From positions 352,001 to 416,000 of the forward strand of contig JAHQJS010000007.1 in NCBI GenBank assembly GCA_019057385.1: a stretch of 64,000 bases of DNA. The letters are read 5' to 3'. The translations under genes and the position numbers were made by a program. The DNA comes from Candidatus Borrarchaeum weybense. Its GTDB lineage: Archaea; Asgardarchaeota; Sifarchaeia; Borrarchaeales; Borrarchaeaceae. The notes under the pieces are model-generated. The model was not told the DNA's origin and did no database searches. It saw nothing but the letters and a program-made list of their open reading frames with translations. Shown here one piece after another: positions 48,049 through 64,000 of this stretch; the first letter of the stretch is position 1, and each line of letters starts with the position of its first letter.

Positions 48049-48263
48049 TTGAACGAAAAAATAAGAGAGAGAATGAGATTAAGTCAATCACCCCCTAACA
48101 AGTTGGGGGGTCTCCTTGCGGTGGTAATTATGAACAGGAGAAAAAACTAAAAGAGATAGATTGGGACAACTTAGATTGGCAGGAATATCTTTGCGATTGT
48201 TGTCATGGAGGTAGTACTGCGCCTACAATTCGAAGCAAGGATAAAGATGCCAAACATGATTAA
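48049..48263 (+). pseudogene. small CDCC-motif protein gene interrupted by a 47-bp mini-element
   Basis: AGGAGG SD and TTG start; removing 48083-48129 restores a 55-aa ORF (...WDNLDWQEYLCDCCHGG...). Confidence 0.6.
48083..48129 (+). mobile_element. 47-bp fused-end mini-element of the IscB-type IS200/IS605 family
   Basis: GTCAATCACCCCCTAACAAGTT matches the start, and GGGGGGTCTCCTTG.GGT..TAATT the end, of 61670..62075; both are followed by ATGA. Confidence 0.88.
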
Positions 48264-59172: not shown

Positions 59173-61038
59173 TCACATTTTAGGGGCTTTACTGTGCATT
59201 TTACATAAGTTATTGTCCATATCCCAACATTGCAAGCAAACCCAGCCCATGCATTCTGGGCAATAGTGAATTTCTTCAAAAATTTTCGATGCTCTAAGTT
59301 TTTCCAGTAATTTATCTTTCTCCTTTTGTGTAAGAAAAAAAGTTTGATCTGGAATCGTTTCCTTTTGCTTATAGAGATCTAATGCTTGCTGTAAATCTGT
59401 AGTTGCATGTCCATAGTCTCCTACTACAATTTTCGCTCCAAGTTTAATTCCATATGCTAACAGTTTTACCCATTTTCGCCATTCTTTATCGCGAATTTCA
59501 CCTATATGTTCTCCGTTGCAGCTACACGTAAAAATTAGCCGAAGCGTGTCCCTCAACTTTCCTGATATCACTTCTACGCGTGATGGAAGAGGAATTGTTT
59601 TCGCAATCTCACCAAGTTTTTCCCTAATAGCCATATCATGCTCTTCAATTCTTGAAATTGTTGTATGCAGTTTTTTAGCAATTTCATTAAGAAATCCGAC
59701 AATTAATTTTTCTGCTGGTGACAAAGCTGTTAGTTCTGCATCATTTCCTACCTTCTTGAGTAGGAGACCGAAAAATTCATGTTTTAAACTTTCACCAGAA
59801 AACTGTGCGTTATCCTCATTTACGTTTACTAAAGATAAGCCGCAGATCCTTTGAATTTCTTGAATGAGAACATCAAAATCTTCAACATTTTCTAGAACAA
59901 TAGTATTCTTTTTTAACGAATCTCTTGTACTTTCTTGCTGAAAGACATCTTGAGACACGAATTTCGGCTTTACAAACTGACACGCTTCAATAAACTTCCC
60001 AGGAACTTCTTTAATGATTCTATTATCCTGATAATCCCGGTAGAATAGAACTGCTCCAATCTTGCTGACTGTACAGATTCTAGGTCTTAAATAATAAATA
60101 GCTGTACGAGCTTCTCCTGGGCGAATTTTTTGAAGATAGACAAGACGACCTTCGGTTTGTGATCCTTCTGCACGTTTAAGATCAAGAATATCTTTCGGGT
60201 AATCCAGTTTAATATCCACGTCATGTATAACATATCGAGTATGATTCTCTACCCGAAAACCAAACTTGATAGTATCTCCCCATGGAACAAAACCCCGTTT
60301 CACAACAACTTCATTCTCTGTTTTCTCACAAATTAAAATCTTTGAAAATACCTCAGTGTCATCTTCTGAAACAATTACTTCTGTATCTGGAATGACATCA
60401 GGAAATGAATCAGAAGGAATTTCATTAGGTTTTGTGACTTCTTTTCTTTTTTGATCCAGTTCATGGAGTGCATGTTCTAGATTTTCTTTTGCACCCTTAT
60501 GATCGGGATTTATTTCTAAAGCTTTTTCATAGTAATAGATTGATCTGCTTAAATCTCCTAGATTTTGATATGCCTCTCCCATGTAATTCATAGCATTCTC
60601 AGATCTGTTATTGATTTTCAATGCTGCGTGAAAACACTCAATTGCCTCTTTATATTCCTCCATAGCCATCTTACACCAGCCTAAGTTGACCCAAGTATGC
60701 GCATCTTCTGATTTTAATTCCAGAACTTTGTCAAAACTTTCAATTGCCCATTTATACTTGCCCAATTCTTTGTATGCCATTCCCAAATTACGCCATCCCT
60801 CAATATTTTTAGGATAAAGATTTACGACTTCTTGAGCGCATTCAACAGCTTTCTTATAATTACCGATCATTCTATATGTGGCGCTTAGGGCATTCAAACC
60901 ATCAGCAAATTTGGGGGCAAGCTTTACAGCTATTTCGAAGTGTTCTTTGGCTTTTTTATAATTCTCTTGTGAAAAATGATACTTTCCGGTCCAAAAATAA
61001 TAATTTGCCTTTACAACATCAAGCATTTTTGGATACAC
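59173..61038 (-). CDS. TPR plus adaptin/COP-appendage-like (Ig and platform) plus Cys-rich C-terminal domain protein
   Basis: About 5 TPRs, acidic linker, IKFGFRVEN...I.DV.I.L.YP...I.PGE...Y.L.P, FVKP..VS..VF, then CxC..H and CxxC..CxxC..C..H. Confidence 0.75.
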   Translation of the reverse strand: MYPKMLDVVKANYYFWTGKYHFSQENYKKAKEHFEIAVKLAPKFADGLNALSATYRMIGNYKKAVECAQEVVNLYPKNIEGWRNLGMAYKELGKYKWAIESFDKVLELKSEDAHTWVNLGWCKMAMEEYKEAIECFHAALKINNRSENAMNYMGEAYQNLGDLSRSIYYYEKALEINPDHKGAKENLEHALHELDQKRKEVTKPNEIPSDSFPDVIPDTEVIVSEDDTEVFSKILICEKTENEVVVKRGFVPWGDTIKFGFRVENHTRYVIHDVDIKLDYPKDILDLKRAEGSQTEGRLVYLQKIRPGEARTAIYYLRPRICTVSKIGAVLFYRDYQDNRIIKEVPGKFIEACQFVKPKFVSQDVFQQESTRDSLKKNTIVLENVEDFDVLIQEIQRICGLSLVNVNEDNAQFSGESLKHEFFGLLLKKVGNDAELTALSPAEKLIVGFLNEIAKKLHTTISRIEEHDMAIREKLGEIAKTIPLPSRVEVISGKLRDTLRLIFTCSCNGEHIGEIRDKEWRKWVKLLAYGIKLGAKIVVGDYGHATTDLQQALDLYKQKETIPDQTFFLTQKEKDKLLEKLRASKIFEEIHYCPECMGWVCLQCWDMDNNLCKMHSKAPKM

Positions 61039-61494
61039 TCCCCCAATAACCAGATTTCAACTCACGTAACATCTCATATTCTTGATATAAAATATCCTCT
61101 GAAGTTCTTGAAGTCTGCTTAGTTAAATACTACATTATTACTTATAAAACCCCATCAGCTTTCGGAAAATCTACAGCTAATCTTATATATGAAGGAAGCG
61201 TTTATATCTCAACCCGTGGGCGGGTTCTCAATACCAAGAAGAAAATACGTTAAATGTTCTAAAAACCGCTTTTTGACTAATACTGCACTTAAGCTAGGAG
61301 TGTGTGTACTAGTAACTGCGCAAGCAAGCACCAAAGCTTCAATGTGGTGATGAATTGAGTGAGTGTGAACGTTCATCACTTGCATCGAAGGGTCTCCCTA
61401 ATAGTTATATAGAAGGTATGAAGAAAATAGTAACAGTAATTGGAGGGATAATACACATACTTGTAGACATGGTGCATACTCCGATTGCATTAAA

Positions 61495-61647
61495 TAAAAG
61501 CAGTACCTACGGGACGTAGGGATGTTAAGCCTGTGGAGACTAAATCCTCTACTGAGGCCGTGGAATACCTCAATAGTATCCCCTAGGTCATAGCAAGTTC
61601 GGGCGTCGAAGCAGGATGCCTCAACGCTTTAGCGTGAGGTAGTTCAC
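61495..61647 (+). ncRNA. TnpB-type omegaRNA scaffold / IS200/IS605 right end, tnpB deleted
   Basis: GTACCTACGGGACGTAGG..AAGCCTGTGGAG (reads VPTGRRDVKPVE, like a TnpB C-tail)...GAAGCAGGATGCCTCA..TTTAGCGTGAGGTAGTTCAC; left end not located. Confidence 0.82.
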
Positions 61648-61669
61648 TAAGATGGAAATGCTAGAAGAA

Positions 61670-62075
61670 GTCAATCACCCCTTAACAAGTTAAGGGGCTT
61701 GTTCCGTGAGGAATAAGAGTAATTGGTTGATTAGCCTAAGAGAGGTCATGGTGGAAACAACATGACGGTATCTACGTTATCAGGAGAGTTAAAGAACGCA
61801 CCAAGGGATGCTTCTCTAGTCCCTTGCTCTGTAAACGGTGGTTTAAACAGAGAGGAAACTCTCAGTGATCATCGTATAGTACTGACTGATAACCTTGGCG
61901 AAGAGAACCTACTCCCTTGATGTTGGGAGCGACGGGACTTGCGAGTACCCGTCATTAAAACACCACCTGAGGTTAGGTATATCATCCCCTGTCTTCGTAG
62001 AAAGGGTTGTGTGAGCAACGCCCGGGATCAATTCCTCACCCCAACAAGTTGGGGGGTCTCCTTGAGGTAATAATT
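61670..62075 (+). mobile_element. non-autonomous IscB-type element carrying a HEARO/omegaRNA scaffold (406 bp)
   Basis: GTCAATCACCCC hairpin, GTTGATTAGCCTAAG, CTACGTT, GGATGCTTCTCTAGTCC, TTAAACAG, TTGGCGAAGAG blocks typical of IscB omegaRNA; terminal hairpin followed by ATGA; no iscB ORF. Confidence 0.88.
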
Positions 62076-62447
62076 ATGATGCCATTTCAAGAAATGATGG
62101 AACAGATGAAAAAACAAATCCGTGAAGGCATCAAACTAAAACGTCCTTCTCCTAATTCCATACAAATGTCAATTGATAAAAACATTGTGGATGAGAATAC
62201 AAGCTCTCAAATTCTGAATCTTGATGAGATGAAGAAAAACATAGGTGAAATCACAGGCAACCCTGAAGATTTGATTTCATTTGAAGCAGGCGATGATAAT
62301 ATTAAACTAGGTTTCAGTGGAGAGGAACCAGCTAATAAAGTGTTTCAGTTTCTAAACGAATTTCTTTACGGGGATATGTTAGATAAACTTATGAAGCCAT
62401 TTCTTGAAATGATGGAGCAGATGAAAAAGAGTTTTGGCGCTGAGTAA
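62076..62447 (+). CDS. hypothetical protein with terminally repeated PF.EMMEQMKK helix; original first 6 codons displaced to 61652-61669
   Basis: ATG directly after the element, with GAGGT inside the element end; the track start at 62007 lies inside the element. Confidence 0.75.
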   Translation: MMPFQEMMEQMKKQIREGIKLKRPSPNSIQMSIDKNIVDENTSSQILNLDEMKKNIGEITGNPEDLISFEAGDDNIKLGFSGEEPANKVFQFLNEFLYGDMLDKLMKPFLEMMEQMKKSFGAE

Positions 62448-62715
62448 TTCAATTAATAAGGTTAACAAGAAACTAACGATAAGTTATAGCCCATTTAATC
62501 TCTCTTTTTTTATCTTTAGTTTTCTATAATGTTCTTACTTACTTTATTCCAAAATAGTTGATTCTTATCGAAATTTTCAAACTGAAATCTCTTATAAAGA
62601 GATGTAACAGAAAAAAGATTTATAAATTTCACTTCAATGATTTTCAAAATAGTTTGTATTTAATTTACAAACTTCATTCTACCGAAAGAAGGTCCTGAAA
62701 AAGGATGAGTACCTT

Positions 62716-62838
62716 ATGGTGTCTGTTGGACCATTGGATTTAGGAATTAGCATTGGAATCATTATCGCTATTTATTTACTTCTTTTAAAGCGAAATGCAG
62801 ATTCTCTTGAACGTTTTATGTCCAAATTATATCTTTAG
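62716..62838 (+). CDS. possible 40-aa single-TM microprotein
   Basis: MVSVGPLDLGISIGIIIAIYLLLLKR...; weak SD; overlaps the convergent MTase stop. Confidence 0.35.
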   Translation: MVSVGPLDLGISIGIIIAIYLLLLKRNADSLERFMSKLYL

Positions 62839-64000
62839 AAATCTTATTAATCGCGTCATCAATTTTATCAATGTTTTTCAGCAGCCGTTCTTTAGTAGGT
62901 TTTCTCCCTCTAATAGAAGTTCCCTGTGAATGCTTTAGTTTTTCCCTAAATTGCATCATCTGTTGTGTGACAGTTTCGGCTATAAAAACATCGCTCTCTG
63001 GGGTAACATTGATATTCTCAATTTTTTGCAATATAAGTATGAACTCATCGTCGATTTTTCCAATATCTGCGCTAGTATATTTTTTTGTTTTATCAATTGT
63101 TCTAAAAATCGTTTTTATTGTCTTGAAACCTATATCCTTAGACATTTCTGCAAAAAATTTATGACTTTCAATCAACTCGTATTCTAAGCTGGAATTCCCA
63201 ACGACAATAACGCAGAACTTGTTTTGTTTTAAAATCCGATTCATTTCTATCATGGAGCGGAGCATGGCTCCTAAATACTCGGAAAACAATCTAAATCTAT
63301 TATTAATAAAACGCGAATGTGCTCCTATTTCATGTTTTTTGAAGGCATTAAAATCCATATCTAACCAGAACATGTTATACATGTGTACTCGATAGTAATC
63401 TAGTGCGTTTACGTAAGGGGGAGAAGTAACTATCAAATCTATGGATTCAGATTCAACTTCTAGCTTTCTTGCATCACTATTCAAGACTAATACATTGGGT
63501 ATATTTTTCATAACTTTGGCAGTTTTCTTTAGTTCATTTTCCATATGAGCCACTTTTCTTAGAAATAAATCCTTCACATCAACGATTCCATGTTCTACTA
63601 ATGACCAAATGGTTGCAGATAAAGCTACTTGTCCGAGATCATATATATCAACAAATCCTTCTGCTCTAATCTCCAATAAAGTCTCCCGAATTGCTTCCAA
63701 TTGTGAAATGATCTTTCTATCGAAAAGTTTGCTAATCTTTCTGCGGGGCATGTTTCTTAATCTTTCATCAATTTGACTGTTATCTACATCCAATTTACTC
63801 TTTATGCTCGCAAGTCTTTCATTTAAATACAATAGTTCTTCTTTATTGATTAATGTTGTTTTTACTTTAGTAATTAGTGCTGCTAGAGGGTTGAAGTCAT
63901 TTCCAATAGAATGCCGGTTGTTTAAGAACGCTTCAACGAGGGTCGTGCCACATCCACAAAAGGGATCTGCGATTGTTTCCTTTTTTTTCGAAAATAATTT
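62816..64000 (-). CDS. DNA methyltransferase (N4-C/N6-A type), 5' end outside the window
   Basis: Frame is open to 64000 and contains DPFCGCGTT (motif I) ahead of TSPPY (motif IV). Confidence 0.9.
   Translation of the reverse strand, partial: KLFSKKKETIADPFCGCGTTLVEAFLNNRHSIGNDFNPLAALITKVKTTLINKEELLYLNERLASIKSKLDVDNSQIDERLRNMPRRKISKLFDRKIISQLEAIRETLLEIRAEGFVDIYDLGQVALSATIWSLVEHGIVDVKDLFLRKVAHMENELKKTAKVMKNIPNVLVLNSDARKLEVESESIDLIVTSPPYVNALDYYRVHMYNMFWLDMDFNAFKKHEIGAHSRFINNRFRLFSEYLGAMLRSMIEMNRILKQNKFCVIVVGNSSLEYELIESHKFFAEMSKDIGFKTIKTIFRTIDKTKKYTSADIGKIDDEFILILQKIENINVTPESDVFIAETVTQQMMQFREKLKHSQGTSIRGRKPTKERLLKNIDKIDDAINKISKDIIWT

Follow-up and report, generated by a model that had tools for sequence, protein, structure and literature searches.

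Facing TnpB-type and IscB-type mini-elements around a 22-nt segment of probable ancestral host DNA in an Asgard archaeon

Introduction

Meers et al. (preprint, 10.1101/2023.03.14.532601) locate the omegaRNAs of IS200/IS605 elements, HEARO included, at the right end of the transposon. According to the same work, the usual role of the nuclease is to cut the donor joint after excision, which lets recombination restore the element, and PATEs are ORF-less IS200/IS605 elements which keep the omegaRNA and have their nucleases supplied in trans (10.1101/2023.03.14.532601). The IscB omegaRNA corresponds to the HEARO family (RF02033), and among the TnpB omegaRNAs of the IS605 family that of ISDra2 (Karvelis et al. 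2021, PMC8612924) is used here for comparison.

We analyzed a stretch of 64,000 nucleotides (the window; G000:C7:352001-416000) of the Candidatus Borrarchaeum weybense genome G000, which has 4.18 Mb, ~37% G+C and 8 contigs. Near the end of the window, a TnpB-type and an IscB-type element face each other. Like PATEs (10.1101/2023.03.14.532601), they have no protein gene, show conserved ends with subterminal hairpins, keep the omegaRNA, occur in many copies per genome and necessarily depend on mobilization and loading in trans. Unlike PATEs, TnpB-type and IscB-type mini-elements are found together in one Asgard genome, and two of them have their right ends facing at a distance of 22 nt. Such an arrangement of facing TnpB and IscB mini-elements is not described in the literature examined. 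Judged from their sequences, the elements are omegaRNA carriers of the PATE-like kind, one of the TnpB class and one of the IscB class.

In relation to HEARO, the IscB-type scaffold gives a full-length match above threshold, has its 5' edge at the transposon end and shows a variable 5' flank in the position of the guide, but the iscB ORF is missing and the scaffold is joined directly to a 163-nt tail. As in ISDra2 (PMC8612924), the TnpB-type scaffold overlaps the tnpB 3' end in full-length copies and terminates at the right-end cleavage site, with the 3' flank as guide and a TAM (TTAC) 5' of the left end; in contrast, at this locus tnpB is deleted, the site motif is GTAC and the scaffold belongs to no curated RNA family. 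A short variable segment between structured RNA scaffolds is also reminiscent of CRISPR repeat-spacer units and dual-RNA guides. Unlike these, the locus has no acquisition machinery, array or foreign spacer, and the segment is host DNA set by the insertion sites.

Results

An IscB-type mini-element with an orphan HEARO scaffold

A first-pass annotation of the window had proposed a TnpB-type right end at 61647, an IscB-type HEARO scaffold from 61670 and, between them, 22 nt (61648-61669) which would be the guide of both, with neither nuclease encoded at the locus. The features delimited in the present analysis agree with this layout and are collected in Table 1. RF02033 was the sole Rfam family matched anywhere in the window, with 130.8 bits against a gathering score of 83 and model positions 1-211 covered, which is the full length and bears out the proposed scaffold. 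The genome contains 36 HEARO copies; their similarity starts exactly at GTCAA, while the 60 nt upstream are unrelated among copies. Therefore, 61670 is a true element boundary and the sequence 5' of it is flank.

Table 1. Features of the facing mini-elements and the interrupted host gene (window coordinates).
Feature	Position	Strand	Basis
GTAC, target/transposon-adjacent motif of the TnpB-type element	61306..61309	+	left-end alignment; GTAC also at the G004 empty site
ORF-less TnpB-type IS200/IS605 mini-element	61310..61647	+	precisely absent from G004, L045, L046 and L047; left-end, right-end and fold homology
Left-end hairpin of the TnpB-type element	~61328-61349	+	
TnpB-type omegaRNA scaffold, terminating in GGTAGTTCAC	~61442-61647	+	
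22-nt spacer, read as ancestral host DNA: TAAG + ATG GAA ATG CTA GAA GAA (codons 1-6, MEMLEE)	61648..61669	+	four empty sites; homolog N-termini
ORF-less IscB-type mini-element	61670..62075	+	HEARO score; sharp 5' boundary; recurring architecture; absent at four related loci
HEARO omegaRNA (RF02033)	61670-61912	+	covariance model, 130.8 bits
End hairpin of the IscB-type tail	~62034-62067	+	
GAGGT motif in the IscB-type tail, 7 nt upstream of the next ATG	62064-62068	+	
ATGA, target motif (TAM) at the far side of the IscB-type element	62076..62079	+	follows the conserved end in 8 copies; abuts the spacer in empty sites
30-nt in-frame segment MMPFQEMMEQ	62076..62105	+	absent from four readable related loci and all homolog N-termini
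Rest of the conserved small host gene, MKKQIREG... to stop codon	62106..62447	+	96% identity to G004; protein alignment A1

No ORF separates the HEARO scaffold from its tail, and 61913-62075 contains no IscB ORF; furthermore, the ORF list gives neither tnpB nor iscB in 61039-62075, as the annotation had stated. A same-strand IscB ORF (RRXRR + HNH) lies directly downstream of the scaffold in 16 other HEARO copies, in relation to which the copy of this locus is an orphan. The ORF-less architecture of HEARO plus tail was found in 8-9 other genomic copies with 84-91% identity, and this repetition indicates that the element transposes as a mini-element.

Directly after the conserved end of the IscB-type element, most copies have ATGA, whereas copies with a second tail type have ATAAA. 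The second type ends in ...TTGCG...ATAAA (e.g., C7:349017, C4:144544 and C5:140902), and in reverse complement its hairpin corresponds to the left end of TTTAT-type TnpB elements. This match suggests ends, and presumably also a transposase, common to the TnpB and IscB classes.

Three further observations were made on IscB-type copies. At this locus, the ATG of ATGA now opens the interrupted host ORF and is preceded, at 7 nt, by GAGGT (62064-62078), and one idea is that the element supplies a putative ribosome-binding site; among the other IscB-type copies, this ATG opens a frame in roughly half, judged by eye. At G000:C7:540617-540666, a HEARO/IscB element begins directly at a TnpB-type right end which is truncated and lies on the other strand, as a nested insertion. 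In addition, an IscB-type micro-element ends at C7:400133 (window ~48082-48133), as a counterpart of the TnpB-type ones described below.

A TnpB-type mini-element with a deleted tnpB

The 10-mer GGTAGTTCAC occurs 99 times in the genome; about 92 of these have a hairpin before them and unrelated sequence after them. Positions 61503-61647 match the right ends of five tnpB-linked copies with 86-89% identity, directly at the 3' ends of their tnpB ORFs, and a long tnpB frame (436-445 aa) is kept in three of the five. The TnpB-type right end at 61647 is borne out by both results and, together with the sharp boundary at 61670, it delimits the 22 nt. In the full-length copy L002, the TAG within GGTAGTTCAC is the tnpB stop codon: the frame crosses the entire omegaRNA scaffold and ends at that terminal triplet (L002:1636-1648, G000:C6:870813-870825).

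The element of this locus is made up of a left end, a short piece left over from the 3' end of tnpB, and the omegaRNA region; tnpB itself is deleted. Its left end resembles ~38 genomic copies, and in the alignment of 38 left ends TTAC is found directly 5' of the conserved sequence, with GTAC in the copy of this locus. BLAST of 61039-62100 against the genome identified one further copy which matches nearly the whole TnpB-type element, as well as ~25 copies which match only its left part (61307-61549). The recurrence of ORF-less architectures elsewhere in the genome argues that the elements transposed as mini-elements.

No Rfam match to the TnpB-type scaffold was obtained even at E<=10 in a scan of 60500-63000. 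The model searches suggested in the annotation therefore succeeded for HEARO, which matched above threshold, and not for the TnpB-type scaffold, which has no Rfam family. RNAalifold predicted a fold of 35 pairs from 16 copies, with compensatory changes in 13 of the 35, in an alignment composed mainly of two sublineages and hence holding few independent covariation events. In the scaffold of this locus, 3 nt are deleted and the GGAAGCC motif, which is invariant in the other copies, is altered. These changes at conserved positions and the presence of GTAC instead of TTAC suggest that the TnpB-type RNA of this locus may be impaired or weakened.

Micro-elements of ~50 nt, which join the left arm of a left-end hairpin to the right arm of a right-end hairpin (TTAC...GCAAGAAAGCACCAC...GTGAGGTAGTTCAC), were observed at more than 12 loci, e.g., C4:585219, C5:230574, C6:592026 and C7:814190.

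Nucleases and transposase encoded elsewhere in the genome

The genome encodes 41 TnpB matches and 16 IscB (RRXRR) matches. One TnpB and one IscB were verified with Pfam, both from copies with RNA scaffolds 88-89% identical to those of the locus, and tnpB and iscB loci with related scaffolds, which the annotation had asked for, were thus found. Only a lone Y1 TnpA gene (G000:C7:194221-194586) is present for ~92 TnpB-type right ends and 36 HEARO copies. As the cognate TnpB and IscB, and one TnpA, are encoded elsewhere in the genome, action in trans is feasible, and it is plausible that nucleases act in trans on both scaffolds.

Empty sites in four relatives

G004, a genome of the same genus, aligns to window positions 60002-61312 and 62091-62813 with 96% identity and with nothing between the two blocks. 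Its empty site reads ...GTGTGTAC, TAGATGGAGATGCTAGAAGAA, ATGAAAAAACAA, which correspond to the TnpB-type motif, the spacer and ATGA, and its spacer differs from that of the window by one indel and one substitution. Motif, spacer and ATGA are likewise contiguous in two metagenomic loci (L045 and L046) and in an NCBI MAG (L047). The consensus of the four relatives is ...(GTAC)TA(A)G ATGGA(A/G)ATG(C/T)TAGAAGAA, followed after the junction by ATGAAAAAA. Both elements are precisely absent and no target-site duplication is seen, the junctions being GTAC to TA(A)G... and ...GAAGAA to ATGA. From these empty sites, both mini-elements are taken to be lineage-specific precise insertions.

In all four relatives, the spacer comprises the final 5'-UTR bases and the first six codons of a conserved protein of 119-120 aa. 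The N-terminal sequences MEMLEE, MEQIEE or EEQIE(E/D) were found in six out of six protein-database homologs and in the G004 copy, and one of the homologs (P0002) is a 97% identical protein. The homologs of a local gene carry the name Promethearchaeota, which identifies the organism as an Asgard archaeon. As the same ~22 nt stand between GTAC and ATGA in four empty sites and code for this conserved N-terminus, the spacer is best read as ancestral host DNA left between two right-end-to-right-end insertions. Of the two origins that the annotation had considered, independent insertion is thus strongly supported by the four relatives, in which both elements are missing and the 22 nt still form the beginning of a conserved gene.

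The upstream region of the small gene (61180-61305) is strongly conserved in the four relatives as well; the conserved features include two TATA-like boxes (61183 and 61201), the hairpin AACCCGTGGGCGGGTT and, at 61270, a T5 run.

One feature stands against a simple picture: the 30 extra nt past the IscB-type element, which encode MMPFQEMMEQ between its ATGA and the ancestral ATGAAAAAA, do not fit a simple insertion. Their best match is a C-terminal repeat of the same gene (62389-62428, 36 out of 40). No donor paralog was detected by tblastn or blastn, and the segment is not found beside other IscB-type copies. The 30 nt may be a scar of repair or of template switching, or a flank brought from an earlier site.

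Integrity of the junction

In a genome as rich in repeats as this one (~92 right ends and 36 HEARO copies), the facing scaffolds might belong to a composite mobile unit which includes the spacer, or might have been joined by a chimeric repeat join in the assembly. We consider this reading barely credible. A DNA contig from an independent public sediment run spans 61512-61744 with zero mismatches, which argues against an assembly artefact confined to this record; furthermore, no second copy of the unit exists in the genome. A composite transposon was rejected because the empty sites of the relatives are collinear with the spacer and with the outer flanks on both sides. Public runs with the stretch came from sediment and mangrove samples. 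In runs X1 and X4, neither an empty nor a half-filled junction was seen among the DNA contigs; rare variants are lost from contigs, so that these do not address polymorphism.

Other facing pairs: chance or coupling

Two facing pairs of a TnpB-type end and a HEARO were found in G000: this locus (22 nt) and C6:788402/788455 (52 nt). When HEARO starts were placed randomly in non-ORF space, a crude model, 0.11 facing pairs within 60 nt were expected against the two observed (P ~0.005); a looser estimate expects ~0.3 within 100 nt. A pattern search in 301 genomes of the phylum, which bears on the annotation's question of whether the layout recurs, found facing pairs only in G000 and at another locus of G004, with a spacer of 25 nt and the HEARO shortened to ~76 nt. 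G000 has the empty site of this G004 pair (TTAC, same spacer, ATAAA), and G004 has that of the 52-nt pair, with the spacer kept. Three lineage-specific double insertions are thus distributed across two sister genomes, each around ancestral DNA. No facing TnpB-TnpB or HEARO-HEARO pairs were detected within 150 nt.

Right ends this close are rarer in the crude random model than in the genome and a third pair exists in the sister genome, so strict independence of the insertions is not certain. The transpositions could be real and yet coupled, with the first insertion promoting the second and the guide-side flank acting as a landing hot spot, for example through ssDNA beside the structured right end, or ssDNA exposed when the vacated site is cleaved by an RNA-guided nuclease and then resected, with a polarity fit for TnpA. 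Such coupling would account for three facing pairs (22, 52 and 25 nt) in two sister genomes, each with its empty site in the other genome, for the marginal excess over random placement and for the lack of same-class facing pairs within 150 nt. We nevertheless hold it to be unlikely: the numbers are tiny, spacer lengths differ, no known mechanism joins the two element classes, and permissive sites together with target motifs, which are probably common at 37% G+C, could suffice. The close pairs of all orientations (three within 100 nt) are also about as many as intergenic-restricted placement predicts. Among 142 markers of element ends, 14 pairs lie within 2 kb compared to ~10 expected genome-wide, and a general clustering of element ends is not convincing.

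A further form of this idea, to which we give a rather low probability, is that the guide-side flank of an omegaRNA is the preferred facing landing site for a second IS200/IS605 element, so that pairs recur and jointly guard one ancestral allele, possibly via a read-through transcript. The ssDNA of the polarity which TnpA needs would then be exposed by TnpB or IscB cleavage of the vacated site and resection, or by stalling at the right-end hairpin.

Transcription of the locus

Among the public RNA runs, metatranscriptome contigs contain related copies with other flanks only; none spans the junctions of the locus, and they do not address its expression. A single joint transcript of both scaffolds is plausible, and read-through from the conserved upstream region of the host gene (TATA-like box at 61201) is possible. 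Records 10 and 11 of RNA run X15, which match 61670-62001, derive from a related HEARO copy with permuted joins: 62001 is joined back to 61715, and 61963 is followed by 70 nt and then by 61670. These joins could correspond to circular omegaRNA isoforms or to tandem copies. Circular isoforms have been reported for archaeal TnpB omegaRNAs (PMC12558985).

The spacer as a dual guide

The guide geometry proposed in the annotation, with the TnpB guide 3' of its scaffold, the IscB guide 5' of its scaffold and the same 22 nt serving both, is correct, in line with the location of both omegaRNAs at the right end (Meers et al. preprint). Each class of omegaRNA lies at the right end and takes the adjoining flank as guide, so both RNAs inherit the same 22 nt.

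From this geometry the annotation had also drawn its second origin, a retained dual-guide RNA. In terms of selection, one transcript would have been kept because a single spacer programs the Cas12 ancestor and the Cas9 ancestor on a common target. Both scaffolds do share their strand with the host gene, no T run >=5 occurs from 61310 to the ORF end, and the HEARO score is on a par with those of IscB-linked copies. Against these points, the spacer is read as ancestral host coding sequence and the layout is missing at the locus in four relatives. The spacer occurs once in the window and once in the genome, and a genome-wide search (22-mer with <=5 mismatches, either 16-mer with <=3) detected no site with matching motifs, so the genomic search proposed in the annotation gave no other target. 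Public metatranscriptome contigs hold no transcript of the locus.

Guides have lengths of ~16-20 nt. One RNA cut inside 22 nt would not give both effectors a full guide, and alternative processing of different transcripts would be needed. The spacers of 52 and 25 nt in the other pairs cannot be shared guides in full, and one of their HEARO scaffolds is cut to ~76 nt; a series of 22, 25 and 52 nt with one broken scaffold disfavors a designed shared guide. Taken with the evidence from the relatives, a retained dual-guide RNA is very improbable.

Discussion

The locus is most probably explained, with high confidence, by two non-autonomous, protein-less IS200/IS605 derivatives which inserted independently, with their right ends facing, in a small conserved gene of a member of Promethearchaeota (Asgard), at its 5' end. 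Boundaries, families, empty sites, cognate nucleases, TnpA and spacer uniqueness were observed; mobilization by TnpA, transcription, loading in trans and cleavage are inferred.

Both mini-elements would have been mobilized by TnpA in trans, presumably the single copy of the genome. The TnpB-type element inserted 3' of GTAC on the + strand, and the IscB-type element 3' of TCAT on the - strand, which is ATGA on the + strand. The 22 nt left between the right ends automatically take the position of a 3' guide for the TnpB-type RNA and of a 5' guide for the IscB-type RNA, and both RNAs would be loaded in trans by the TnpB and IscB proteins of the genome. The TnpB RNP would read TAM plus spacer and the IscB RNP spacer plus ATGA, so that each would target only the vacated ancestral site (GTAC + spacer + ATGA), as found in G004. 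Cleavage of this donor joint, followed by recombination, would restore the element, according to a homing-guard logic.

In this explanation by two separate insertions, the eye-catching dual guide for the ancestors of Cas9 and Cas12 is a geometric by-product, as the empty sites reveal: with the omegaRNAs of both classes at the right end of the transposon, a common flank is inevitable when two insertions face each other. As to the choice of insertion sites, the small excess of facing pairs is a lead and not a result. ORF-less omegaRNA elements of the TnpB and IscB types, described as active, occur here together in an Asgard archaeon with a single TnpA, and the locus, whose empty allele is known, is a natural test case for nuclease action in trans.
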